Sequence record: NC_054928.1
Direction: 5' to 3' (one strand)
DNA: 64,000 nucleotides
Source: Escherichia phage vB_vPM_PD112
Below the pieces are notes generated by a model that worked only from the letters and a program-made list of their open reading frames with translations, was not told the origin of the DNA and did not search any database. Positions 2,365-28,779 of the stretch are shown here, one piece after another (the stretch's first letter is position 1; the number at the start of each line of letters is the position of its first letter). Both the position numbers and the translations under genes were made by a program.

Positions 2365-5061
2365 TCAGCCAAACAGGAAGTCTAACGAAGCTTTTTCTTC
2401 ATAGTCCATGCCAGCCGATTCACACATACCCGCAAGCGGTTTAACAAACGATTTTTGGAACAAAGTTGAGTGGTCAATCCAAGATAGCACATCAGAACGA
2501 ATTTCTTTTGGAAGTTCTGTACCCGATGGCCAAGCAATGCACTTGTCACCAAATGGATTTCCCTCACGTAATGGAAGAACCATTACCTTATTTCCATCCA
2601 AAATTGGAGCTACACCTAGACCACTAACAGCTCGACGATAAGTTAGCACCCCACGAATATGGAACGGGCATTTAAATCCTGGCCAACCTTTATCATCATA
2701 TTTCGCTATATCATTCGCAGTTTTTACTTCAGCAATAACTTTATAGTCAAGTTGACGATATTCTTTCTCGAAGTTCTTGTAATATTCTTGGACAGACTCT
2801 TCACCTTCCTGAAGAATACGACGAATACTTTCTTCGAGAGCTTCTTGCACTGCTTTTGGTGTTGAACTCTGCTGAGTTTCCATACCCATGATTTTTAGAT
2901 GTGGTTCAGCAAATCGCTTATCTTCCATATCATAAACGTTCAGAGCATAACGTTTTTTCGCTTTCCAAAATCCACCGACACCCTTTGAACCAAGCGGAGG
3001 ACAAGAAATAGCTTCACGGTCCATATGCATCAGATGCTCGCGATTATTCATATAATCACATAACTCACGATATGCAACATCAATCATAGGTTCCATCTTT
3101 TTCTTACCGAACTGATTCATGAATTCAACTAAATCATTTTGTTCTTTAAAGCGGTCAAGACCTACTTTTTCAATAACTTTATCTACACAAACATATACCG
3201 AATCAGTATCACCCGCGGCGATGAAATCTTCATCATTAGTTCCGCATACTTTATTCAGATATTCGTTAATTTTACGAGCAATCCACTGAATACCAACTTG
3301 ACCAAAAATTGTGATAGCAGTAGCATTTCGCAAATCATAGTAACGGAAATGAATGTTACCAAGAGCACCATAAAGACTGTTAATAAGAATTTTACGGTTC
3401 AGCTGATTTGTGTTAGCAAGTGTAGCTGCTTTTTCACATTCTTCAATCAGACTATTGAGAACGGATTCGGTGTAATTCGATAGTTCATTTAAGAAATCAT
3501 CATTGAACTTAACATATCGTTCAACTTCTGGTTTAGTTGAACAAGACCCTGCGCCTTTCATAATAATCTTTTTAATAGCTTCGGCATTCATTTCTTCAGC
3601 GAACATTTTCTTTTTCCAATCTTTACGCTGGAAAAATACTTTAGCGATTTCCTTTGGAATGATACCTTCTTGATGCTTATCATACATCCATCCATTCGGA
3701 GAACAAGAATATTCATCACTCGGTTTAGGAGCTGTTCCTGCAATATATTCATGAATTGGATGAACTTTAAACTGCCCACGAATAGTCTCAGGACTAATGT
3801 TAACCTGACGAATAATGCTAGGATACAGAGACGTCAAGTCAAAACTCATAATATATCGACGAGCAATTGGTTTAGGTTCAAACACAAATGCACCCGGAAA
3901 ACTTTGTTTAACGTGCGAACCCTGTTGAGGAATAACCTTATGTTCACCTTTCAGTGAGTTAAAAATAATAGCGTCCCAAGTTTTAATAGGACTCATTACG
4001 CCAGAAAAAGGCATTTTAGCGTAATAAGACATACTTAAAACTAGATCGATAAACCCACGAATTTTATCAATTGCTTGAACTGATTCTACGTCAATGATGT
4101 TATAACTAATGTATCGTTGATGATTAGTCTCACGAAGTTTATTAATAGGACCATCATACGGTAATTTACCTTTTTTGGTTTCATGCTGAGCAACTGATTC
4201 CAAAGAGAATGACGGCAAATTAGTAAATGCGAATTTCTTATACAAATCTAAATAATCAAGAATAGATACGCCATCAATAGAATAAATTTCTTTGCTACCG
4301 TACACATTTTGAATTAGTTTAGATTTTACCCGACCGATTGGAGAGAAGCGTTTCATACTACGTTCGCCAAGAACCATTTTAACACGATTCATGATATACG
4401 GAACGTCAAATCCCTCAATATTCCAACCAGTAAAAATAGCAGGTCGTTTCTGTTCCCAGAGATTAATATATTCCATGAGCATATCACGCTCATTATCAAA
4501 TGGCATATAAATTACTCGGTCAAGAATTTCTTGAGGAACTTCATCACCACCTTCACAGTCAAGCTTAGCAGCTAACTTTGCATCCCATTTTGATACTGAA
4601 CCGTACATTGAATTCAAAAGGTCGAAAACATAAAAACGGTCATCAATTGAATCGTAATGAGTGATAGCATCAATTTCATATTCTGCTTTCATTGGGTCAG
4701 GAAATTTATCACCAGTAACCTCAATGTCACAGTTAGCTACACGAACAAATTTTCGGTCATAAACAATTTCTGAACCATATGTATCACTGATATAAGCGAG
4801 TTTAAAATCGTTCATACCGAGAGCTTCGAGACCGATGTCTTCCATTCGTTTCATCCAATCTCGTGCATCTTTCATTGATGGAAATTTTTGAGGAGCGCAA
4901 TTTTTACCATAAATGTCTTTGTATTTTGATTCTTCCTTACAGTGTCTAAACATAGTCGGAATATATTCTACTTCACGAGTACGTTCCTTTCCGTTTTCAT
5001 CAATATAACGTTCAACAATGTTATTTCCGACTGTTTCAATAGAGATATAAAATTCTTTCAT
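2365..5061 (-). CDS. 43: DNA polymerase (family B)
   Basis: 898 aa, T4 gp43 length and N-terminus MKEFYISIETVGNNIVERYIDENGKERT. Confidence 0.95.
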   Translation of the reverse strand: MKEFYISIETVGNNIVERYIDENGKERTREVEYIPTMFRHCKEESKYKDIYGKNCAPQKFPSMKDARDWMKRMEDIGLEALGMNDFKLAYISDTYGSEIVYDRKFVRVANCDIEVTGDKFPDPMKAEYEIDAITHYDSIDDRFYVFDLLNSMYGSVSKWDAKLAAKLDCEGGDEVPQEILDRVIYMPFDNERDMLMEYINLWEQKRPAIFTGWNIEGFDVPYIMNRVKMVLGERSMKRFSPIGRVKSKLIQNVYGSKEIYSIDGVSILDYLDLYKKFAFTNLPSFSLESVAQHETKKGKLPYDGPINKLRETNHQRYISYNIIDVESVQAIDKIRGFIDLVLSMSYYAKMPFSGVMSPIKTWDAIIFNSLKGEHKVIPQQGSHVKQSFPGAFVFEPKPIARRYIMSFDLTSLYPSIIRQVNISPETIRGQFKVHPIHEYIAGTAPKPSDEYSCSPNGWMYDKHQEGIIPKEIAKVFFQRKDWKKKMFAEEMNAEAIKKIIMKGAGSCSTKPEVERYVKFNDDFLNELSNYTESVLNSLIEECEKAATLANTNQLNRKILINSLYGALGNIHFRYYDLRNATAITIFGQVGIQWIARKINEYLNKVCGTNDEDFIAAGDTDSVYVCVDKVIEKVGLDRFKEQNDLVEFMNQFGKKKMEPMIDVAYRELCDYMNNREHLMHMDREAISCPPLGSKGVGGFWKAKKRYALNVYDMEDKRFAEPHLKIMGMETQQSSTPKAVQEALEESIRRILQEGEESVQEYYKNFEKEYRQLDYKVIAEVKTANDIAKYDDKGWPGFKCPFHIRGVLTYRRAVSGLGVAPILDGNKVMVLPLREGNPFGDKCIAWPSGTELPKEIRSDVLSWIDHSTLFQKSFVKPLAGMCESAGMDYEEKASLDFLFG

Positions 5062-6074: not shown

Positions 6075-7034
6075 TCACTTCCACTGCATTTCGCATGCCA
6101 ATTGAATGAAAAGATATGCTAAATGTAATTCCGTATTAGCCGCAATTCCATGATACTGGTTATTTTCACCAACAATTTCATACATACGAATAATACTTTG
6201 CGGAGTTACGCGTGTATAAATTTCTTCGGCAAGTTTACCAACGAACCACGAATAATCAGCCGCATATTTTGGTGCTAAAGCTCTGAGTTGTTTAACATCT
6301 TTATTTTTGAGAGACTCAAGAACATCATCAATAGCACCACGATCGTTAGTAACCAGTGATAAAATACCAGCATCCAAAACACCTTTAGATGAATAACTAT
6401 CGAGCTCACCAATAGTTTTACGAAAATCAGGAAAATTCTTTTTAACCAAAGCTGCTACAACTTTCATATCAGCTATAGCAATTCCTTCACGCTTGCAGAT
6501 TTCAGTCAATCGACGAATCATCTGCTTCATCATTTCAATTTTATCTTCATCGGTCGGTTGACCGAATGTGATAACTCGACAGCGTGACTGAAGCGGTTTA
6601 ATAATACCATCAATATTGTTAGCAGTAATAATAATACTACAGTTTGAACTATAAGCTTCCATAAAGGAACGAAGATGTCGCTGAGATTCTGCTAACCCTG
6701 AACGGTCAAATTCATCAATAACGATTACTTTTTGACGACCATCAAATGAAGCGGCGCTGGCAAAATTAGTCAAAGGACCACGAACGAAATCAATTTTACA
6801 ATCTGATCCATTCACAAACATCATATCAGCATTTACATCATGACACAATGCTTTTGCTACAGTTGTTTTACCTGTTCCTGGAGAAGGAGAATGAAGAATA
6901 ATATGTGGAATCTTACCTTTACTTGTAATAGATTTAAAGGTTTCTTTATCAAAGGCGGGAAGAATACATTCATCGATAGTAGATGGACGATATTTCTGTT
7001 CAAGAATGTGTTCTTTTTCATTTACGGTAATCAT
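6075..7034 (-). CDS. 44: clamp loader AAA+ ATPase subunit; probable ATG at 7034 (MITVNEKEH)
   Basis: Walker [11 protein letters not shown], Walker B VIVIDEFD; T4 gp44 synteny. Confidence 0.9.
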
Positions 7035-7085: not shown

Positions 7086-7772
7086 TTAAAAATCGTGGGT
7101 AGAATCAGCTTCAAGAGCTACCACATAATTCGCGTGTTCACCTTCAAATTTAGCAGCACCTTGTTTACCTTTTGCCCAGAGCAGAAGTTTATAATTTCCT
7201 GGTTGCATTTTCATATTTGCCATATTGATAATGAAATTAAATGTATTTTCACCATCATAATCGCCAAGAGTCAAAGAATATTTAACACGAGTCAAAGCAG
7301 AATCTTCTACTTTATTAAAACCGTTAATTACGATTTTACCTTCTTTTACCGTGATAGCAATTGTATCAATTTGCAGACCACGAGATACACGCAACAGTTG
7401 TTGAAGGTCTTCAGCTTTAATTTCAGTAACAACAGATGCTACCGGGAATGGAATTGGTTTATTAGGAGCAACTACTGTACTCGGATCGGCTGCTGGCCAA
7501 AAAATTGTTGAGCGAGCATCAGCAATTTTAATATTACCATCTTCTGACTGGGAAATTTCTGCATCATCATTAACTAGAGACAGAATACCGAGAAAACCGT
7601 TCAAATCGTAAATTGCTACATCAAAATCAATAACGTCAGAAATATTTGCTTCAGCATAAGTTGTACCATTAACTGCACGAGTCATAATAAATTGACCAGA
7701 TTTAAGCATAATACCGGAGTTAATAGTAGCGAAATTTTTCAAAATATTCAGTGTATCTTTAGACAGTTTCAT
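7086..7772 (-). CDS. 45: sliding clamp
   Basis: 228 aa, T4 gp45 length and sequence. Confidence 0.9.
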   Translation of the reverse strand: MKLSKDTLNILKNFATINSGIMLKSGQFIMTRAVNGTTYAEANISDVIDFDVAIYDLNGFLGILSLVNDDAEISQSEDGNIKIADARSTIFWPAADPSTVVAPNKPIPFPVASVVTEIKAEDLQQLLRVSRGLQIDTIAITVKEGKIVINGFNKVEDSALTRVKYSLTLGDYDGENTFNFIINMANMKMQPGNYKLLLWAKGKQGAAKFEGEHANYVVALEADSTHDF

Positions 7773-7801
7773 GTAATTTCCTTCAATTCAAATGAGATTT
7801 A

Positions 7802-7827
7802 ATTTTATAACTAATTTAATAAAGCAA
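7802..7827 (-). promoter_or_regulatory. T4 middle promoter (MotA box TTGCTTTA, 12 bp spacer, -10 TAAAAT) upstream of gene 45
   Basis: Minus-strand read TTGCTTTAttaaattagttaTAAAAT. Confidence 0.5.
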
Positions 7828-8217
7828 TTAACGATTAAAATCAGCAGCAATTGTTTCCGCAACAATTTGAGCAGCAACAATTAGACGTTCATCTGCATTA
7901 CCGCAATAACCATCTTCAAGGCGTTCACCACATGAAGTCATAATAAATTTGGCACCAGCGTTTAGGGATTCTGTAGTATGTTTGCGCATTAGTTCAATCC
8001 ATTTATCACTCACTTCACGATCGATAGCTTCATAATACGCATGACGAGCAGGTGCAGATTTAATTTTGTTCTGAATAACTTCCATTGCGTTATCAGAAAG
8101 AGACAAAACCCATGCTCGACGAATTTTATTTTGGTTTTGTGGATTTGAATCAGAACGCACGTGTTTTGGCTGAATATCTTTTACATCAACAGTATAATTC
8201 ACAGTAATTTTAGTCAT
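7828..8217 (-). CDS. rpbA: RNA polymerase binding protein RpbA
   Basis: 129 aa, T4 position between 45 and 46. Confidence 0.8.
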
Positions 8218-8470: not shown

Positions 8471-10153
8471 TTAAACCATTACAGTAAATCGACCAACTTT
8501 CTTCATTTGAAGATGCTGACCATATTCTTGCGGGTCATGGTCTTTATGCGAAATTATAAAGACATTAGTGTTTTTCATTGAATTTATAATATTAGCTACA
8601 CCTTTAATACCTTCGGCATCAAATGACCCATCAAACACTTCATCAAGAATTAATGTACTAATACTAACACCAGATACGATAGAAGCAATATCACGCCAAG
8701 TAAATAAAAGAGCAATATCAATTCGTGCCTTTTCGCCTTCACTAAATGAAGCATAACTAAAATCTTCACGACCACGGGATTTAATTGTCTCATTAAATTC
8801 TTCATCTAATGTAAACACATAATCCGCTTCCATTATTTTAAGATAATGGTTAATCTGCTTATTAAATAATGGAATGTACTTTTTAATAATAGCACCTTTA
8901 ATACCAGAATCTTTGAGCATATCAGTCAAAATTCCTCGGTGGTATTTTTCCATTACTAAATTAGTTTTTGTCTTAACAATTTTATCAAGTTCTTCTTGAA
9001 GCAGTGCTATTTCATCAGCATGGTCAATAAACTCAGAAGATGCTTTTTCTATAGCCGCTTTAACCTTTTTGGCTTTATCTACCGTCGTGATTAGAGATTG
9101 CTTTTTATTGCGAATATCATTTGCCAACGTCTGCTGGGTTTTAATATTATCTCGGTATTCATCAACAAGAACTTTTAAATTATCACGATGCGTTGAAAGC
9201 TGTTCAAATGAATGCGTACATTCAGAAACTTTATCTTTAATTTTAGAAACAACTTTATCACCGGAACTTAATTGTGACAAACAGGTTGGACATAATCCAC
9301 CTTCGTGATACATATTAATGACTTTATTATACGAATCAATTTTTGATTTAATTAAAAATGCTTCTTGACCAATTTTATTAAATGCATCAGTCGGGTCTTC
9401 ATCTAAAACAATATTAACTAATCTTTCGTTAGCTTCTTCTATTTCCGATTTTAGTGTTCTAGCTTCTTTTGCCAAATCATCATACATATTTTGCAGACGA
9501 GTAAGGTTTTCACCAGACAATTTTTTCTGGCGTTCAACATTATCGTTATATATTTTAATTTGTTGGATAATACTATCTTTTTTAACATCAAGCACTTGGT
9601 TTTGTGAATTTAATTCACGTATTAGTGCTTTATTAAGCTTATCCATTTCAGCTAATGTTCCTACTTCGAGCAGGTCTTCGACGAGTTTTCTTCTTGCAGG
9701 AGTGGATAGGCCCATAAAAGGGGTATATCCAGCCGTGCCGAGTACGACGATCTGTTTGAAACTGGCGTATGACATTCCGATAAGCTGTTCAAATTCTGCT
9801 TGGAAATCTTTACTGCTGGCAGATTCATTAAGACGTGTACCGTTAACGGTGATTTCGAAAACATTTGGTTTTTGTCCTCTTTTGATATAGTACTTTTTCT
9901 CATCATATTCCATCCACAGTTCAACTAAAAGTTCTTTCTTATTTGTGCTGTTTATTAATTGGCCTTTCTTTACATCACGAAATGGCTTGCCAAAAAGCCC
10001 AAATGTGATGGCTTCTAACATAGTAGACTTACCACCGCCATTTCGTCCAGTAATAAGAGTTTTTTGAACCTTATCTAGTTGAATGTCAATCCCATTTTGA
10101 CCAACTGACATTATATTTTTATATTTTACTCTATTAAGTTTAAAATTCTTCAC
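8471..10153 (-). CDS. 46: recombination endonuclease subunit (Rad50/SbcC-like ATPase)
   Basis: 560 aa; P-loop GRNGGGKST, long coiled-coil, C-terminal ABC signature; T4 gp46 length. Confidence 0.9.
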   Translation of the reverse strand: MKNFKLNRVKYKNIMSVGQNGIDIQLDKVQKTLITGRNGGGKSTMLEAITFGLFGKPFRDVKKGQLINSTNKKELLVELWMEYDEKKYYIKRGQKPNVFEITVNGTRLNESASSKDFQAEFEQLIGMSYASFKQIVVLGTAGYTPFMGLSTPARRKLVEDLLEVGTLAEMDKLNKALIRELNSQNQVLDVKKDSIIQQIKIYNDNVERQKKLSGENLTRLQNMYDDLAKEARTLKSEIEEANERLVNIVLDEDPTDAFNKIGQEAFLIKSKIDSYNKVINMYHEGGLCPTCLSQLSSGDKVVSKIKDKVSECTHSFEQLSTHRDNLKVLVDEYRDNIKTQQTLANDIRNKKQSLITTVDKAKKVKAAIEKASSEFIDHADEIALLQEELDKIVKTKTNLVMEKYHRGILTDMLKDSGIKGAIIKKYIPLFNKQINHYLKIMEADYVFTLDEEFNETIKSRGREDFSYASFSEGEKARIDIALLFTWRDIASIVSGVSISTLILDEVFDGSFDAEGIKGVANIINSMKNTNVFIISHKDHDPQEYGQHLQMKKVGRFTVMV

Positions 10154-21926: not shown

Positions 21927-22136
21927 TTAACCCCGAAGCTTATTAAGTTCTTCATAATCAATCCAGGATTCTAGTCCTGATGGCAAATCATATTCAATTT
22001 CCCAAAGAAGTTCTTCAATTTTCTGAAGACGATCTAATTCTTCAGCTGGAATAGTAACCATTGACGGAGCTCTTGCTACATTAATATCGTAAATCATATT
22101 TACCCCAGTTTGACCATACAATCGCCGTATTTCCAC
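21927..22136 (-). CDS. hypothetical protein
   Basis: 69 aa ORF. Confidence 0.4.
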   Translation of the reverse strand: MEIRRLYGQTGVNMIYDINVARAPSMVTIPAEELDRLQKIEELLWEIEYDLPSGLESWIDYEELNKLRG

Positions 22137-22315
22137 TTAGAAATAGACTTTTCACCGTTAGAATAATAAACTTCGAGTTTAGCACGGTTATTTTTAATTT
22201 GAATAATCTTTGCTGTCATCAAAGTTCCATACCCATAATAAACTGCAACTTCATCACCTACATATACCGCGCTTCCGCGGTAGTCATGGATATAATCAGT
22301 TCCTTCGAGCATCAT
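22100..22315 (-). CDS. hypothetical protein
   Basis: 71 aa ORF. Confidence 0.4.
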   Translation of the reverse strand: MMLEGTDYIHDYRGSAVYVGDEVAVYYGYGTLMTAKIIQIKNNRAKLEVYYSNGEKSISKWKYGDCMVKLG

Positions 22316-22575
22316 TTAAAGTATTCCCGCAATTGGTCAAATCCACCAATATGACTTCCATCAGGAGCAAATACTTGTGGCATTGTCAAACCAATTTGAG
22401 TATCACGACCTAGTTTCGTCAGAAGCTCAGCGATTTTCTCATCATCAAAAACACCTTTTTCCGGCATAATATTGATAAATTCAAACGGCTGTTTCTTCAC
22501 AGTCAAAAGACGTTTTGCATTATCGCAATACACACATTTGTGTATGTTGCTATCATAACCATATACTTTAAACAT
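22312..22575 (-). CDS. nrdC: thioredoxin/glutaredoxin NrdC
   Basis: 87 aa, CVYC active site; T4 NrdC length. Confidence 0.85.
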   Translation of the reverse strand: MFKVYGYDSNIHKCVYCDNAKRLLTVKKQPFEFINIMPEKGVFDDEKIAELLTKLGRDTQIGLTMPQVFAPDGSHIGGFDQLREYFK

Positions 22576-22643
22576 ATTATTCCTTAATTCCTAATACTTG
22601 TTTAAAAGTCTCGTCGTAATCAAGACTTTGGCCCGTTTGTTCT

Positions 22644-22865
22644 TTATGTTTGTATAATATCACTTACTTCTGATAGCATATTTTTATATGAACGAGTTAA
22701 AGCTGATTTAAGCACGCTGTATCTATCAGGAAATTTACCATGTTCATTATAATAAGCTATTGCTAATTCACGGACTGCCTTTTCAGCAGTCTCCATATAT
22801 TCTTTACGCTTGGTCATTTTCTTCTCGGTTAAATCGGTGTTTGCAATGACGACATTTATATTCAA
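22644..22865 (-). CDS. hypothetical protein; start uncertain
   Basis: 73 aa ORF. Confidence 0.35.
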
Positions 22866-23121
22866 GCTCTGGTTTACGCCAGTTAATCAATTGGACCTGT
22901 TCAGTACCACATTTTGGGCAGTTCGGAACATTCTTAGAAGCCCTTTCGCGGCGTTCAACCATAACCATAATGGCATCCCAAGCAGGAGGTTTAAAGTCTA
23001 GATCGTCACAGCCATGAATCTTTCCACGCATTTCCAGATCGTCTTCTTCACCAGCCATAATGATTTTAATTAGACTGGAATTACTTGAAGCTGCAATATC
23101 TTCTAATAGACGCTTTTTCAT
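22804..23121 (-). CDS. zinc-ribbon protein
   Basis: CPKCG...CRHCKH four-Cys motif. Confidence 0.45.
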
Positions 23122-24044
23122 TTCAATACCTCAATAGCATTACGTAAACCATTTGCTTTTGCATTAAGAGCTTTTAACAATTTGGTATGTTCGGCAATCT
23201 GGACTTCAACTTCAATCAAACGAGCATTGAGATATTCGCGTTCTTCGCTCAAGTTATCAATCTTTTCTACTTTAGGTTCTTTTACAACTGGCTTATATGT
23301 ATTAGGGTTCTTCAGTTTAATTAGAATGCGTGAACTGTATAACATTGAACCATTATCTTCGGTTTCATCATACATTTCCACTACGTCCATCATCTCCACC
23401 ATCGTGCAGAGTTTATAAGACAGCGAACGAATAGTTTTGTTATGCTTATTAATTTCTCTAGCTGTCATGGTGCCGAGATTACGTGAGTAATAATAAGGAA
23501 CCTGGATATTAATTAATACTGATGAACCACCTGGCTTGTGTGTTACTTCATCAGCAATAACCCAGTCCTTAACATGAACTGTATTTGTACGGTCATCGCC
23601 CGCGGTAAATAGTTTACGAGCATGCTTAAAAAGCATATTCACTTGGTCATTGAATTGACAAGCGAATTTATCAGCAAATTTAGTTTCAGGAATGGTAGAT
23701 AACCAATCAGCTAAATGGGTCTTTTTAACATCGTTAACAATAGTAAATTCAACCAAATCGGTTATAGATGTCGCAGTTTTAATGAATCTCGGCTTCATAA
23801 AGTTTTTAATGTTATCGCGAGCTACAGTAGAAGATAACAGACGAGAACGTTTAAACCATTGAAGCAAATTGCCTAACGAATGAGAATAAGCGTTTTGAGT
23901 ATCTTTACAGATATGATTTTCCTGGCCAACATATTGAAGGAAATCACGAAGAATATTATTGATTACTGCTCTGTGCCCAATCTGATAATTACGGTGTTTA
24001 GTAATAAGACTGTCAAAATAATCAATATAATGTTTACGAGTCAT
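23118..24044 (-). CDS. hypothetical protein with C-terminal coiled coil; probable ATG at 24044 behind GAGGAG RBS
   Basis: ORF; RBS read on minus strand. Confidence 0.5.
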   Translation of the reverse strand: MTRKHYIDYFDSLITKHRNYQIGHRAVINNILRDFLQYVGQENHICKDTQNAYSHSLGNLLQWFKRSRLLSSTVARDNIKNFMKPRFIKTATSITDLVEFTIVNDVKKTHLADWLSTIPETKFADKFACQFNDQVNMLFKHARKLFTAGDDRTNTVHVKDWVIADEVTHKPGGSSVLINIQVPYYYSRNLGTMTAREINKHNKTIRSLSYKLCTMVEMMDVVEMYDETEDNGSMLYSSRILIKLKNPNTYKPVVKEPKVEKIDNLSEEREYLNARLIEVEVQIAEHTKLLKALNAKANGLRNAIEVLK

Positions 24045-24101
24045 ATTAATCTCCTCAGTAGAAAGTAAGAACATTATACCACATCCTTGCGGCAAAGTAA
24101 A

Positions 24102-25115
24102 CTAGTTCAGTGCATTTAGTGCATTGTTCAGTTTAGAACGTTGCTTCGTGAGATTTTTGACTTTTTCTTGAGCTTTTTCTAACATCTTTTCAGCTTCTAA
24201 CACTTCATTAGTTGCTTTAACGAGTTCATCATCTACTGCCTTAAGAGACTTCTCAATCGCGTCAGCGTGCCATTTTTCTACAGGTTTAAAATTTGAATTT
24301 TCAGTAGGAAGAAAATTCACTTTATTGAATTTCCATGCATTTTTATTACCTGAACTATACATCCAAAATTTAGGATCGTTTGATAAGTAATTGGATAAAT
24401 TTAAATTTAAGTTATCTTGCACTTCCTGCTTTTTCTCTTGCGTGACTTCGTCCTTTCTCAAAAAATCGTATTTAAATGAAACGATCATATCAAGTTCATA
24501 TGTTGTGTCTAAGAAATGCTGTGAAATCTTAGACTGAACAGCGGCAACAACATCCATATACTTAAATGCTTCTGTCAACTGCGATTTAAGGCATTCACAA
24601 ATTGAAAGAGAATTTTTTGTATTAGGTTTAAAGCTAATTCGTGCAGTTCTATTATTTTCTTTTAATGGTCTTACTTCCATCTGAAGAGTATAACCATCAA
24701 ATTTCAGATTCTTTAAGTTAATATCAGAACCTTTCAATCGACTCGCAGTTGATAAAATTTGTTTTAATTGTTTACGGAATAGAGCAATAAATCTCCATTC
24801 AAGACGATAATGATTTGGATTAAAAAATCCTGTTGATAAATCGACCTTACTTTGACCAACGCCTTGAACAAATAGAGGATTTTTATAATCAATAGTTTTA
24901 CAGAAATCGGTGAGCTGCTCACGAGCCGTCATTTGCGTAATATACCCTGCTTCGCTAAAATTACGCACCCATTCACTGCTATTCGTATACTTAAAGTGAT
25001 GAATAACACGATTAACTTTATCAGGGTCTAAATTATTTTCACACAAAAATGTCATAACATCACGAGTATAACTGGCATTACGAACCATATCTTCAATTTG
25101 AGAACGAGTTTTCAT
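24102..25115 (-). CDS. hypothetical protein with C-terminal coiled coil
   Basis: 337 aa ORF, AAGGAA RBS. Confidence 0.5.
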   Translation of the reverse strand: MKTRSQIEDMVRNASYTRDVMTFLCENNLDPDKVNRVIHHFKYTNSSEWVRNFSEAGYITQMTAREQLTDFCKTIDYKNPLFVQGVGQSKVDLSTGFFNPNHYRLEWRFIALFRKQLKQILSTASRLKGSDINLKNLKFDGYTLQMEVRPLKENNRTARISFKPNTKNSLSICECLKSQLTEAFKYMDVVAAVQSKISQHFLDTTYELDMIVSFKYDFLRKDEVTQEKKQEVQDNLNLNLSNYLSNDPKFWMYSSGNKNAWKFNKVNFLPTENSNFKPVEKWHADAIEKSLKAVDDELVKATNEVLEAEKMLEKAQEKVKNLTKQRSKLNNALNALN

Positions 25116-25123
25116 GGTGTTCC

Positions 25124-26014
25124 TTAAGATTTAAGTAAATCAACAATTTTAATTAACTTTTCACGCTCAGATTTAGCTTTACTACTCAATCCAGATAGTC
25201 TGAAAATTTCATCGTCATATTGTTGAATAGAAATATTCAGCTCTTCAATTTGCTTATTAAAATAATCAATTTGTTCAGAATGTTTTTCGTTACTACGAAC
25301 TGGTACAGGTTTTGTAGGCAATTTAGTTGAACTGGATTCATCCGGGCGATAAATTAAAATACAACTTGAACCAATCGGACATTTAGCACCAGACACATAT
25401 TCTAATGTTCCGGCTTCTTTTAAAACTTCAAAAGCTAAACAGAGATGATGACCCATATTGGCATAATCTGTAGAGTGAGCTCTGATGTAATAATCATCTC
25501 CACGAGTACTAAATTTAAAGCATTTAAGGTCTTCTGTATTATTGGTCTTAAAAATCATTTGTTTATCTAGACCTTTAGCTAATCGAGCGCCTAATGCTAA
25601 TAATCGTCGTTGATTTTCCCACAAATCCGCAATCATTTGGTCAAATGATAATTTCGGCATTAGTCGACCATAAAGGTCATATCCTTTATTATAATTACGA
25701 AGGATTTCACTCGCATTAATACGAGACAACGCTCCAATTTTATTAAGGGCTTTCATAATGCGATTAGATAAACTCATTCCAGACCCGTTTGGTCGCTGTA
25801 AATGTTTTTCTAATCCAAATCCAATATCAACTTTAAACTTATCTAAAATTTCGGCATGAACATCTTTATCAATAACATTCAAATCCAAAGTTGGGTTAAA
25901 TCTATGAAAAAATTTATCTGGCTCTCCACGACGAAATACAGTCCATTCATTCATCATTTTTTTATTAACTAAAGATTTAATTACTGTATTGACATTATTA
26001 ATTACTACTGACAT
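25124..26014 (-). CDS. hypothetical protein with C-terminal coiled coil; probable ATG at 26014 (track ORF starts at a GTG at 26050)
   Basis: ORF; GAGGAA RBS before MSVVINNVN. Confidence 0.5.
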   Translation of the reverse strand: MSVVINNVNTVIKSLVNKKMMNEWTVFRRGEPDKFFHRFNPTLDLNVIDKDVHAEILDKFKVDIGFGLEKHLQRPNGSGMSLSNRIMKALNKIGALSRINASEILRNYNKGYDLYGRLMPKLSFDQMIADLWENQRRLLALGARLAKGLDKQMIFKTNNTEDLKCFKFSTRGDDYYIRAHSTDYANMGHHLCLAFEVLKEAGTLEYVSGAKCPIGSSCILIYRPDESSSTKLPTKPVPVRSNEKHSEQIDYFNKQIEELNISIQQYDDEIFRLSGLSSKAKSEREKLIKIVDLLKS

Positions 26015-26021
26015 ATTTTCC

Positions 26022-26429
26022 TCACTCAATTTCAATTTTACTAAATACACAGAATATGATTGAACAGACTACATAAGCACCACACACAGATTGAACTAAT
26101 ACCATCCCAAAGAACCAAACAATATTATCAAACAGTGTCTGTTTTACGTCGAAAGGACGTAAACTTACAGTAATATTATCACCTTTTTCTATTGAAGAAT
26201 ACATCTCTGGGGAAATATATTCACTAAATCTATAACCGTCTTTGAGTTCATATACAGCAATAAACGATAAACTAGACCCCTTTCCTTGTGTTCCTGTAAT
26301 GGTATTAACTACAGTAACATCATAATCTTTATAATGCATATAATCATTAATTGCGTAATAACCGTATGCAACTACTACACATAAACAACATATCAATAAA
26401 TTCAATCTTTTAATTATCAACTGTTTCAT
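26022..26429 (-). CDS. small membrane protein (N- and C-terminal TM segments)
   Basis: 135 aa, hydrophobic ends. Confidence 0.45.
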   Translation of the reverse strand: MKQLIIKRLNLLICCLCVVVAYGYYAINDYMHYKDYDVTVVNTITGTQGKGSSLSFIAVYELKDGYRFSEYISPEMYSSIEKGDNITVSLRPFDVKQTLFDNIVWFFGMVLVQSVCGAYVVCSIIFCVFSKIEIE

Positions 26430-26484
26430 AATAATCTCAATTAAAAGGGCTTAGAACCATTATACCATCCTTGGTATAAAGCGG

Positions 26485-27012
26485 TTATGCGAGTACCGTC
26501 TTTAACCGTTCTTCAAACTTCCGAAGAGTATTTTGGCGTTCAGCTCTTTGCTTTTTGTAAGTTTCAATACGCTCTGAAATGAGAGTGTATCGTTCATTTA
26601 CTGATTCTTTCATAAAATCAGGAATTTCACGAGAAGCTTTAATCTCATCAAATTTATCAATAACAGCTTGCTCTTCAGCAATTAAGTTATCATACATTAA
26701 AATATCTTTCTTGATGAACTCAATATCTTCTTGAGTTACACGAGATAATTTAGATGCTTTATCCTTTTTGTACTGTTCGTTAGTATCACGAGACCAGTGT
26801 AATGTACGATTTTTATTCGTATTCTTATAAATTTCTACAATACCAATCTCATCGATAATAACGATCCAATTCCAATGGGATTTGTAAATTTGTCCTCCAT
26901 CAACCGTGATTTCACCTCCAATTGAGATGTCATTAAAGAACTTGCTTTGTGCTTCAGATTTAAATTTACCATCGTTATAATTTACCAAGTTGAAAATATC
27001 TTTAGCGTTCAT
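26485..27012 (-). CDS. hypothetical protein with C-terminal coiled coil
   Basis: 175 aa ORF; early promoter upstream. Confidence 0.5.
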   Translation of the reverse strand: MNAKDIFNLVNYNDGKFKSEAQSKFFNDISIGGEITVDGGQIYKSHWNWIVIIDEIGIVEIYKNTNKNRTLHWSRDTNEQYKKDKASKLSRVTQEDIEFIKKDILMYDNLIAEEQAVIDKFDEIKASREIPDFMKESVNERYTLISERIETYKKQRAERQNTLRKFEERLKTVLA

Positions 27013-27037
27013 TTTCTGTTCCTCCGTAGTTGATAGT

Positions 27038-27070
27038 TGTATAGTACCACAGAGGAACAGTCTTGTAAAC
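27038..27070 (-). promoter_or_regulatory. T4-type early promoter
   Basis: Minus-strand read GTTTACAagactgttcctctgtgGTACTATACA. Confidence 0.6.
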
Positions 27071-27072
27071 CA

Positions 27073-27387
27073 CTAAAAGAAACTTCTTTCACAATTTTTT
27101 CCACTAAACCATGCGCTCACTGCTTTCTTAGTCTCAGGAGCAGTGTTATCCATAAACCATTCAAAGGCAGCCTTTTTATGATTCTGGAGGGCTTCTCGGG
27201 CTTTAATCTGCTCACGGTCTATTAACACTAACATATGAGCCTTTCTTGTCACCATGGGCTTCTTATGATTTTTTGAATACTCCCAGTCATTTGTCCATCG
27301 CATTGTCGTTGCGAACTGAAATACAGCTTCTTTAATCTTAGTTTCGTAAATTTCACGAGCCTTTGAGTATAACATCACTACCTCCAT
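27073..27387 (-). CDS. hypothetical protein
   Basis: 104 aa ORF. Confidence 0.4.
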   Translation of the reverse strand: MEVVMLYSKAREIYETKIKEAVFQFATTMRWTNDWEYSKNHKKPMVTRKAHMLVLIDREQIKAREALQNHKKAAFEWFMDNTAPETKKAVSAWFSGKNCERSFF

Positions 27388-27477
27388 TCACCAGTTTAAT
27401 TCTAGTCATCTTTTTAATGGCAGTCCATATAATCTATTTCTGAACTGCCTTTTTGTCTTAGAAGGCCTCTTATGAAT

Positions 27478-28446
27478 TTATTTCAGAAGAGTAACCTCAG
27501 CAATTTCTTGCCAACCGTTTTTGTCGGTCATAATAAAGTCAGCAAGATAAAGTGCAGTACGCAGTGAAACATTGCGTAAACGGTTAACATTGACTTTCAT
27601 CCATGATAATGCTTTATAAGTTTCTTCATCAGAAAGACCGCGCTTTTGCATCATGTCGGTTGAAAGAATAACATCTTCAACCCTGACCATAATTTCTTCA
27701 TTAGTGTGAACACCCAAATCCAAATAAACTGAGCGGGATACTAATGCTTGTAAATGTGGAGCAAGTTTAGTACCACGGTCTAATTCGCGGTCAATGTCAA
27801 CGTTTGTGATAAAAACAATCGTTCCTTTAAATTCAAACTCACGCTCAATGCCTTTTTCTTCTAAGTAAGAAGATGCAGTGCTCCAGCAGACTTTACGGGT
27901 CTCTCCAGTGTCCAGAGCGGCTTTTAGAAGATTAAGAATGTCCATATCAGAGAAAACATCCACATCATCAATCAAAAGGACAGAATTCTCTTCACGATTA
28001 TTCCAAAGTTGTTCATAAAGACCGATACCGGAGATTTTACCGTTAATGCTTTTATATTCAATGTATCCATTATCATTTGCTTTATTCAAAGCTTTATCTA
28101 AAGAATACGTTTTACCAATACCTGCTGCACCAGAGATAATTAATGAACGAATGTTTCCGTTAATAATACCATTCGTCATCATTCCCATAACATTAAATCT
28201 TTTATTAATGCGGGTTTTCATATCTTCATACGATTCTTTAACTTCTTCAACTTTTACACCATCATATGAAATGTCTGATTTGTAAACCCAAACACCGCGA
28301 CGTTTACCGTCAATTTCAACAAAAACTTTACCATCTCCTTGTGCATCTACCGGAGCATTATCTGGGAACCATTCACCTAAGAGCTCAAAAGTTCCAGAGA
28401 TTTCTTTACCGAAGTAGATACCCTTATTGATAGTTACAGTTTTCAT
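27478..28446 (-). CDS. P-loop AAA-type ATPase with N-terminal extra domain; probable ATG at 28446
   Basis: Walker A GAAGIGKT, Walker B VLLIDDVD. Confidence 0.6.
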   Translation of the reverse strand: MKTVTINKGIYFGKEISGTFELLGEWFPDNAPVDAQGDGKVFVEIDGKRRGVWVYKSDISYDGVKVEEVKESYEDMKTRINKRFNVMGMMTNGIINGNIRSLIISGAAGIGKTYSLDKALNKANDNGYIEYKSINGKISGIGLYEQLWNNREENSVLLIDDVDVFSDMDILNLLKAALDTGETRKVCWSTASSYLEEKGIEREFEFKGTIVFITNVDIDRELDRGTKLAPHLQALVSRSVYLDLGVHTNEEIMVRVEDVILSTDMMQKRGLSDEETYKALSWMKVNVNRLRNVSLRTALYLADFIMTDKNGWQEIAEVTLLK

Positions 28447-28477
28447 TTTATTCTCCAATTTTACATTTGTTTTGATA

Positions 28478-28512
28478 GGGTAATAGTATCACACTACTAC
28501 CCTGCTGTAAAC
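28478..28512 (-). promoter_or_regulatory. T4-type early promoter
   Basis: Minus-strand read GTTTACAgcagggtagtagtgtgaTACTATTACC. Confidence 0.6.
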
Positions 28513-28515
28513 AAT

Positions 28516-28779
28516 TTATTTTAATGTTCGCCAAATTTTTACTGCTTCGCGACGAGATACTTCTACAGCTCCAAGTTCTACAGCTTTTTGGCGTCGCCGA
28601 GCGTGTAAGTCATAATGTTTAATGCGTTTATCTTGAAACCAAGAACGTTTCATTCCTATTGCTTCTGCCATTTCGTGAAGCTCTTCAATATCTCCATCAG
28701 TGAACATATGACAATTTTTAGTTGGATGACCGCGAAGTTTCCATCCATGATTCATTAAAACATCTACGTAAACTGTCAT
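28516..28779 (-). CDS. conserved hypothetical protein
   Basis: 87 aa ORF (…KHYDLHARRRQKAVELGA…). Confidence 0.45.
   Translation of the reverse strand: MTVYVDVLMNHGWKLRGHPTKNCHMFTDGDIEELHEMAEAIGMKRSWFQDKRIKHYDLHARRRQKAVELGAVEVSRREAVKIWRTLK

Follow-up and report, generated by a model that had tools for sequence, protein, structure and literature searches.

How do several neighboring phage proteins, each looking unlike the next, come to end in the same kind of long, heptad-patterned helix? The question is raised by a short locus of Escherichia phage vB_vPM_PD112 (sequence record NC_054928.1), of which we analyzed a stretch of 64,000 nucleotides, referred to here as the window. Between positions 23118 and 27012, the minus strand of the window carries the orthologs of five T4 genes, nrdC.3, nrdC.5, nrdC.6, nrdC.7, and nrdC.8, without nrdC.4. 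An initial annotation, made from the sequence, had seen in this run four proteins with unrelated-looking heads, each finished by a coiled coil, and a small protein with two transmembrane (TM) segments sitting among them; it proposed that one tail for oligomerization or tethering had been placed on different heads, giving a family of modular effectors.

Our answer is a different one. NrdC.3, NrdC.5, and NrdC.6, together with the NrdC.4 that the window lacks, are, to judge from their sequence profiles, strongly diverged tandem paralogs, homologous in head, linker, and tail, and NrdC.8 is an independent helical protein with a different head, not the carrier of a shared module. The explanation that we favor, and to which we give a probability of about 0.65, is that the paralogs form an expanded anti-defense family, in which fast-evolving, target-binding heads are joined to conserved, oligomerizing tails.

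The five genes are all present, on the minus strand, with ATG starts and motifs like a Shine–Dalgarno (SD) sequence upstream; lengths are in amino acids (aa):

23118–24044, minus strand: nrdC.3 ortholog, 308 aa; Y04O/Y04P family PF26897 (Phage_T4_Y04OP)
24102–25115, minus strand: nrdC.5 ortholog, 337 aa; DUF7235 (PF23882, Y05A)
25124–26014, minus strand: nrdC.6 ortholog, 296 aa; Y05B family PF26899 (Phage_T4_Y05B)
26022–26429, minus strand: nrdC.7 ortholog, 135 aa; small two-TM membrane protein, Y05C, PF26908
26485–27012, minus strand: nrdC.8 ortholog, 175 aa; Y05D family PF26901 (Phage_T4_Y05D)

Are the Heads Related?

At the level of BLASTP, the heads do look unrelated, just as had been claimed: only NrdC.3 and NrdC.4 are visibly alike (25–28% identity over ~270 residues, E from 3e-14 to 8e-8), and no similarity was found among the heads of NrdC.3, NrdC.5, NrdC.6, and NrdC.8. 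At the level of profiles, the claim fails for NrdC.3, NrdC.5, and NrdC.6. The profiles, which we call C3, C4, C5, and C6 after their proteins and compared with hhalign, were built with divergent copies of the cluster gathered from phage RB69, a metagenomic contig (L004), and 12 IMG/VR contigs. L004 encodes an NrdC.5 at 38% identity, and in a distant T4-like group of IMG/VR contigs, NrdC.6 stands at 42–52% and NrdC.5 at 27–30% (L009 is Escherichia phage vB_EcoM_005). A word-indexed search with the merged alignment returned almost nothing except relatives of NrdC.5, and no NrdC.4; because of that skew, the diversity was taken from the loci themselves and from an exhaustive search of representative sequences.

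Full-length C3 and C4 match at P = 2.7e-14, C3 and C4 merged match C5 at P = 3.3e-6 over 243 colinear columns that run from head to tail, and all three merged match C6 at P = 6.3e-6; when C5 and C6 are merged and set against C3 and C4, the head core gives P = 8.8e-9. Reversed sequences, run as controls, never gave a P below 0.04. With the tails removed, P is 3.6e-14 for C3–C4, 4.5e-4 for C4–C5, and 3.8e-3 for C5–C6. The subfamilies are also bridged by divergent family members from the search of representatives, 328–345 aa long, that keep the same plan of head, linker, and tail. One of these bridging proteins, P0107, matches C6 at P = 4e-12 (227 columns) and C5 at P = 2e-7 (232 columns); another, P0111, matches C6 at P = 1e-9 and C5 at P = 1e-8; and a third, P0105, matches C5 at P = 8e-5 and C3/C4 at P = 1e-3. 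Colinear similarity between profiles is, in other words, strong for C3–C4 and good for C4–C5, and it reaches C6 by way of the merged profiles and of P0107 and P0111.

Structure comparison gave the third kind of evidence on which, beside profile–profile comparisons and bridging sequences, we call these proteins paralogs. A Foldseek search of BFVD with the NrdC.5 model returned nine matches at E ≤ 1e-3, all of them phage proteins of 211–374 aa; for eight of the nine, the source is named and is a phage of enterobacteria, which we take as T4-like, and one is unnamed. Among the nine are the JS10 protein annotated “nrdC.6” (E = 4e-6) and a 308-aa protein of Yersinia phage fPS-65 that is probably of the NrdC.3 type (5.5e-6). 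The head folds compare at global template-modeling scores of 0.26–0.41, from a query that was built on a mixed alignment and has a mean predicted local distance difference test score (pLDDT) of 63.

What do the paralogs share in sequence? The landmarks of the merged alignment are an N-terminal MTRxEYI, then FKxSRLLSxxxAxxxLxNFGK, FxxxxxxLLAxAxRLxxG, and LxxALxxMxxVE, followed in the C-terminal part by a variable linker and a helix that ends RxKLxxALxLLK. Each member consists of an alpha/beta head of ~215–250 aa, a linker of 20–65 aa that is probably disordered, and a heptad helix of 45–58 residues, and the tail helices of NrdC.3 to NrdC.6 all finish with L-x-x-A-[LIV]-x-x-L-K. Pfam already joins NrdC.3 and NrdC.4 as Phage_T4_Y04OP and keeps DUF7235 and Y05B separate. 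Outside T4-like phages (Tevenvirinae), the family does not occur, and it is narrow: when a heads-only profile was run with HMMER, exhaustively, against 1.84 billion representatives, no more than 17 clusters came up at E ≤ 1e-3. A 511-aa repeat protein from the representative search (P0108) was judged spurious.

NrdC.8 does not belong with these. Against every subfamily, whether as whole proteins, heads, tails, or merged profiles, hhalign gave P of 0.017–0.8, within the range of the controls, and we rejected it as a member. That is, the idea of a shared tail on unrelated heads does not stand: three of the four proteins are paralogous in head as well as tail, and no homology to those tails could be detected in the helices of the fourth. 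The initial annotation had itself named homology of the heads, as ordinary paralogs, as an outcome that would tell against its idea, and for three of four proteins, this is what profile comparison found.

Are the Tails Coiled Coils?

We scored heptad character with a homemade measure (not a published predictor) that runs through windows of 28 residues in all seven registers, rewards a hydrophobic a/d core and charged e/g positions, and penalizes proline and glycine. Across the 83 nonoverlapping open reading frames (ORFs) of at least 80 aa in the window, the four soluble proteins of the locus take the first four places for the C-terminal score: NrdC.5 at 12.9, NrdC.8 at 12.0, NrdC.3 at 11.2, and NrdC.6 at 10.8, with the next ORF at 10.2 and the median at 5.1. 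Simple counting puts the chance that the top four fall within five consecutive genes at P ~1.7e-4 (317 of 1,837,620 subsets), a clustering for which paralogy accounts. When the last 60 aa were shuffled with composition preserved, the observed score was matched in 0–3 of 500 shuffles. The regions, with these scores, are as follows:

23121–23255, minus strand: NrdC.3 heptad tail, residues 264–308, register unbroken; score 11.2, matched in 3 of 500 shuffles
24105–24275, minus strand: NrdC.5 coiled-coil tail, residues 281–337 (register from ~280); score 12.9, 0 of 500 shuffles
24285–24464, minus strand: NrdC.5 disordered linker, residues 218–277; pLDDT ~30, no secondary structure in the AlphaFold2 (AF2) model
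25127–25285, minus strand: NrdC.6 heptad tail, residues ~244–296, ending KLIKIVDLLKS; score 10.8, 3 of 500 shuffles
26491–26733, minus strand: NrdC.8 helical region, heptad registers 93–125 and 135–175; score 12.0, 1 of 500 shuffles

In NrdC.3, NrdC.5, and NrdC.6, unbroken registers span 45–58 residues, and in alignments of diverse orthologs, the conserved L/I/V/M columns of NrdC.3, NrdC.4, NrdC.5, and NrdC.6 repeat most strongly every 3.5 residues, a period whose power well exceeds that of 3.6; NrdC.8 comes close to its maximum power at 3.5. The 3.5-residue periodicity thus extends over at least four heptads and goes beyond composition, which we rejected as the cause of the tails on the strength of the shuffles and of the period in the conserved columns. 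Some 50 residues of such regular hydrophobic spacing would most simply be read as a homo-oligomeric coiled coil.

Two of the proteins, NrdC.5 and NrdC.8, were modeled with AF2, as monomers, and both models contain long, uninterrupted helices. In NrdC.5 (mean pLDDT 63), an alpha/beta head reaches to residue 214, and beyond the linker, the C terminus is a single helix of 56 residues (281–336, pLDDT 71–87). The single-sequence model of NrdC.8 has an N-terminal part that is beta-rich and of low confidence, followed by helices at 94–126 and 132–174 (pLDDT 68–89 there) with a break at REIPD. Because these are two separate helices, which probably form a helical hairpin in the model, the tail of NrdC.8 is not a single rod of 40–60 residues; the coiled-coil tails that had been announced on four proteins are borne out by the heptad ranking of all four and do not hold in that form for NrdC.8. 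The NrdC.8 model has no BFVD match at E ≤ 1e-3, its N-terminal half being too poor for the purpose, and sequence searches of the PDB with the single proteins and with the family profile found no match.

Which Part Is Conserved?

In all four groups, the tail is better conserved than the head. Identities are as follows:

NrdC.3: tail 78–82%, head 58–59%
NrdC.4: tail 56–69%, head 39–49%
NrdC.5: tail 64% and 29–41%, head 40% and 23–29%
NrdC.6: tail 61–70%, head 30–54%

Conservation is generally lowest in the linker, most clearly for NrdC.3, NrdC.5, and the RB69-type NrdC.6; NrdC.4 is an exception. In distant orthologs of NrdC.5, the linker is conserved at 18–24%, the lowest of the protein. NrdC.8 occurs in 740 phage records, and its identity there never falls under ~67%; in all, genes of this set are carried by some 650–740 phage genomes.

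Loss and Turnover of Gene Copies

Where did nrdC.4 go? In T4 and in phage IME537, it lies between nrdC.3 and nrdC.5. Positions 22800–24041 of the window correspond to nrdC.2–nrdC.3 of IME537, and positions 24025–25300 correspond to the start of its nrdC.4, the region upstream, and nrdC.5, so the two correspondences meet in one short overlap:

24025–24041, minus strand: recombination junction deleting nrdC.4, with the crossover within ATGACTCGTAA, which nrdC.3 and nrdC.4 have in common at their 5′ ends
24073–24101, minus strand: promoter-like site before nrdC.3, TTTACT-17-TATAAT with TG, from a consensus scan only

A crossover in ATGACTCGTAA puts the promoter-like site and the SD motif of nrdC.4 in front of the nrdC.3 body, and the flank of the promoter-like site is identical to the 5′ flank of nrdC.4 in IME537. 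The deletion is probably shared with other phages, because several other records match the region in one piece.

Other copies have been damaged in other ways. In the T4 reference, a deletion of one nucleotide in nrdC.6 (GAGCTG-ATATT; NC_000866, ~10000–10110) shifts the tail out of frame and leaves a protein of 275 aa; what follows of the tail can still be read, intact, in the next frame, the NrdC.6 of the window (25124–25260) keeps the tail, and the frameshift is either a mutation of the laboratory strain or a sequencing error. The nrdC.5 of RB69 (AY303349, 5976–6878) encodes 300 aa with an unrelated C-terminal peptide, and the near-identical IMG/VR contigs L015 and L016 (7974–8933) encode a 319-aa NrdC.5 with a normal heptad tail, from which it follows that the RB69 gene is frameshifted in its tail. 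On a contig of 167 kb, the protein P0057 is an in-frame fusion in which NrdC.5 residues ~146–265 run into the second half of NrdC.3 across a short microhomology (...KVN|MLFKH), and is another deletion between paralogs. In vB_EcoM_005 (L009), an NrdC.4-type gene (8781–9752) and nrdC.8 (6446–6871) have in-frame deletions inside their helical tails, of which only the last 13–15 residues are retained (…DRLEQALELLK and …ERLKTVLA).

NrdC.3 itself exists as two alleles that are 60% identical, one in T4 and T2 and the other in the window, IME537, and RB69, amid flanking genes that are 90–98% identical, which makes the locus a mosaic. A Kanagawavirus has one family member, at the syntenic locus. Taken as a whole, the loss of nrdC.4, the frameshifts in T4 nrdC.6 and RB69 nrdC.5, the P0057 fusion, and the 60% alleles of NrdC.3 give this family the dispensability and the variability in copy and sequence that characterize host-range proteins.

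The Membrane Proteins Nearby

The two-TM protein had been recognized correctly: NrdC.7 has hydrophobic segments at ~5–27 and ~103–131 on the Kyte–Doolittle scale. It precedes nrdC.6 in T4-type phages, and its position is variable: RB69 has it elsewhere, and contigs L009–L014 lack it; its tie to the NrdC.3–6 family is positional only.

A second small membrane protein, which we call x71, was met in several T4-like lineages, where this conserved two-TM protein of 69–71 aa lies immediately upstream of, and sometimes overlaps, a family member (L004, 7133–7348; L009–L014, ~7675–8044; L017, which is IME523, 4457–4666). It has no relation to NrdC.7, and the window lacks it. In L004 and L009–L014, it precedes nrdC.5, and it matches gp086 of the Kanagawavirus (hhalign P = 2.4e-10), which stands before the family member there, gp085.

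What Might the Family Do?

One member has a known effect. When T4 nrdC.5 is expressed, a deletion mutant is reported to plate again on E. coli with the dsr1 gene of ECOR17, so that T4 NrdC.5 neutralizes Dsr1, a SIR2-domain defense protein (Srikant et al. 2022, PMC9391042). Elsewhere, DSR1 is to this day termed “poorly characterized.” Two neighbors of the family also have reported targets, Gp49.2 countering OLD (PMC13096335) and NrdC.1 countering Septu (bioRxiv 10.1101/2025.11.20.689424). Beyond PMC9391042, our searches of the literature on nrdC.3, nrdC.4, nrdC.6–nrdC.8, DUF7235, and Dsr1/ECOR17 yielded no paper on mechanism or architecture, and Pfam, PHROGs, and NCBIfam offered only DUF or unknown families, nothing functional, for the proteins of the region.

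From the anti-Dsr1 role of NrdC.5 and the presence of Gp49.2 and NrdC.1 nearby, we infer that the NrdC.3–6 paralogs may be dispensable host-range (that is, anti-defense) factors made from the early-gene strand. In each, the fast-evolving head would bind a particular host defense protein, and the conserved tail would self-associate as a coiled-coil dimer or trimer and could in this way add avidity or match targets that are themselves oligomeric. nrdC.4 was lost when its 5′ end recombined with the homologous 5′ end of nrdC.3, and the duplication, divergence, deletion, and frameshifting of copies may reflect an arms race. For the paralogs other than NrdC.5, an anti-defense role is a prediction.

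The nearest known systems are both like and unlike what the window encodes. Its NrdC.5 is the ortholog of T4 NrdC.5 at the same locus and 92% identical, and it differs by small indels, in the head (ISQHF--LDTT in the window, ILPRFERFKLDTTS in T4) and also in the linker; activity against Dsr1 is reported for the T4 allele, whereas the allele of the window is known from sequence. NrdC.3 and NrdC.6 are likewise orthologs of their T4 counterparts, at 60% and 96.5% identity, but the window lacks nrdC.4 and keeps the NrdC.6 tail that the T4 reference has lost to its frameshift. Gp49.2 and NrdC.1 resemble the family in coming from the same accessory region (pin–nrdC–nrdC.11) and strand and in being anti-defense proteins of small to middle size with no known domain, each directed at a specific host defense; unlike NrdC.3–6, they are much smaller, have no coiled-coil tail, and show no sequence relationship to it. 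DSAD1 (e.g., PMC10981675), an inhibitor of the SIR2 defense DSR2, is like NrdC.5 in being encoded by a phage and repressing a SIR2-domain NADase defense, a functional analogy only; the two belong to different phage groups and have different targets, and with the comparison made by function, no homology is claimed.

Several points weigh against the explanation that we favor, and they should be set out together. With heads alone, the comparisons C3–C5, C4–C6, and C3–C6 are not significant (P = 0.21 for C3–C6), so the case for including C6 is made by merged profiles, by bridging sequences, and by Foldseek, and the AF2 model of NrdC.5 that served for Foldseek is a low-confidence one whose alignment already mixed subfamilies. 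Oligomerization of the tails is suggested by their heptads, and the early timing of the genes by their orientation and by consensus promoter matches. The NrdC.6 of the T4 reference has no tail, which means that the tail is not essential for growth in laboratory hosts. Finally, NrdC.5 is the only family member with an experimental phenotype, and for T4 NrdC.5, PMC9391042 gives that phenotype and not an architecture or a mechanism.

What, then, of the alternatives? The best of them, though we think it unlikely, is that the family is not generally anti-defense, with NrdC.5 and Dsr1 being a special case and the other paralogs having other early roles in host takeover. Against this stand the facts that the paralogs have the architecture of a proven counter-defense protein and that the locus holds two more anti-defense genes; moreover, turnover in copy number, the allelic dimorphism of NrdC.3 (60% against more than 90% for its neighbors), and dispensability are all typical of host-range genes.

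Less likely again, in our estimate, is that the tail serves as a helix with which the heads dock onto one common partner, be it a host protein or NrdC.8, NrdC.7, or x71, and are delivered to one place. Such a role would suit a tail that is conserved above the head in every group and whose terminal L-x-x-A-L-x-x-L-K is common to the paralogs, as it would suit the in-frame deletions of L009, in an NrdC.4-type protein and NrdC.8, that spare the last 13–15 residues; in three genera, a small two-TM protein does lie directly upstream of a family member, and NrdC.8 is both syntenic and very conserved. The candidates for a partner do not keep company with the family as faithfully as one would wish, however: in RB69, NrdC.7 has moved away from the family and there is no x71, and the Kanagawavirus has a family member and no detectable NrdC.8. 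The 3.5-residue spacing over ~50 residues is also, as noted, most simply homo-oligomeric.

A wider version of these ideas, in which the tails would join different heads into a hetero-oligomeric and possibly membrane-anchored counter-defense complex of many specificities, one scaffold presenting several heads, with the paralogs themselves, an NrdC.8 hub, and/or NrdC.7/x71 as the partners, strikes us as very improbable. We would put a shade below it the proposal of modular effectors in its original sense, that unrelated heads independently gained the same coiled-coil module by domain shuffling. The failure of BLASTP to connect the heads, their separate PHROGs and Pfam families, and the truly different head of NrdC.8 speak for it, but heads and tails of NrdC.3–6 align colinearly and significantly, through profiles and bridging sequences alike, Foldseek connects the models, and the helices of NrdC.8 have no homology to the tails above control level. 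“Effectors” remains a fair label, given what T4 NrdC.5 does to Dsr1; the modular grafting does not survive. Last, and with next to no credence from us, comes the notion that these are thioredoxin-related or nucleotide-metabolism proteins, a label that these ORFs carry in many phage records, although neither Pfam nor NCBIfam gives any of the proteins a thioredoxin or glutaredoxin match, even with E allowed up to 1.

Gene Identities, Labels, and Neighboring Features

The window is from a Tequatrovirus; its positions 22000–28500 match Escherichia phage vB_EcoM_CE1 at 98.9% identity, and a match spanning at least 80% of that segment is present in each of 490 phage records. We assigned gene identities by identity and synteny against the T4 reference and IME537. 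The longer ORFs starting with TTG or GTG in a program-made list are mere extensions of the true genes; NrdC.3, for example, starts at an ATG with a GAGGAG SD motif, and the 325-aa TTG ORF that reaches 24095 is an extension of it.

NrdC.3 is 60% identical to T4 NrdC.3 over 308 aa (E = 2e-132) and 97% to gp200 of IME537. It belongs to PF26897, since its homologs at 58–97% identity all bear that precomputed assignment and it matches NrdC.4 at 25% identity over 271 aa (E = 8e-8); it also matches phrog_1435. NrdC.5, whose 92% identity to its T4 ortholog holds across the full length, matches PF23882 at E = 2e-117 with 392.5 bits (cutoff 30) over model positions 1–307 of 307 and is, with that, a DUF7235 protein. 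For NrdC.6, the identity to T4 NrdC.6 (over 259 aa), the ATG with its GAGGA SD motif, and the phrog_2257 match, which begins at Met13 of the program-made ORF, agree on the gene, and 56% identity to an L004 protein flagged PF26899 places it in Y05B. NrdC.7 is 90% identical to T4 NrdC.7. NrdC.8, 98% identical to T4 NrdC.8, is placed in Y05D by 82% identity to an L004 protein flagged PF26901.

One more feature comes from the same promoter scan, consensus only, and lies upstream of the run:

27041–27069, minus strand: promoter-like site upstream of nrdC.8, TTTACA-17-TACTAT with TG

Farther along, NrdC.10 (27478–28458) has weak P-loop matches to AAA/STAND NTPase families (E from 1e-4 to 3e-4, below the Pfam cutoffs), and between nrdC.10 and nrdC.11 lies a DUF4031-like ORF (28516–28779; annotation from IME537).

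Some weak similarities were set aside. Residues 29–87 of NrdC.3 (23784–23960) resemble an NCBIfam XerC/XerD N-terminal model at E ~1e-3, with 18 bits against a cutoff of 279, which is probably noise; we dismissed the XerD match, like the weak PgrA and CENP-F matches on the tails, as noise or coiled-coil bias.

The labels in public records deserve a word. In many GenBank records, every nrdC.x ORF is called “thioredoxin,” as many as 11 of them at one locus; NrdC.7 is a “Mur ligase domain-containing protein” in one record, and “terminase small subunit” stands at the match to NrdC.8 in another; none of the three labels has support in Pfam or NCBIfam. “Thioredoxin” is an error of name propagation, because it was copied from gene names in which nrdC.x means “next to nrdC.”

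What It Means

Which of this is new? The T4 gene content is known, and so is the published counter-defense role of one gene; what we add is modest, namely that three Pfam families are joined as one superfamily with the plan of head, linker, and coiled coil and that a conserved tail goes with a variable head throughout. This is no new kind of system: it extends the accessory genes that phages use for counter-defense, and it corrects a widespread misannotation as thioredoxin. T4 is the best-studied of phages, and yet most of its nrdC.x genes are without an assigned function. If the paralogy holds, NrdC.3, NrdC.4, and NrdC.6 each become a candidate inhibitor of a different host defense or of a Dsr1 variant, and the neutralization of Dsr1 would gain a structural handle, with specificity in the head and oligomerization in the tail.

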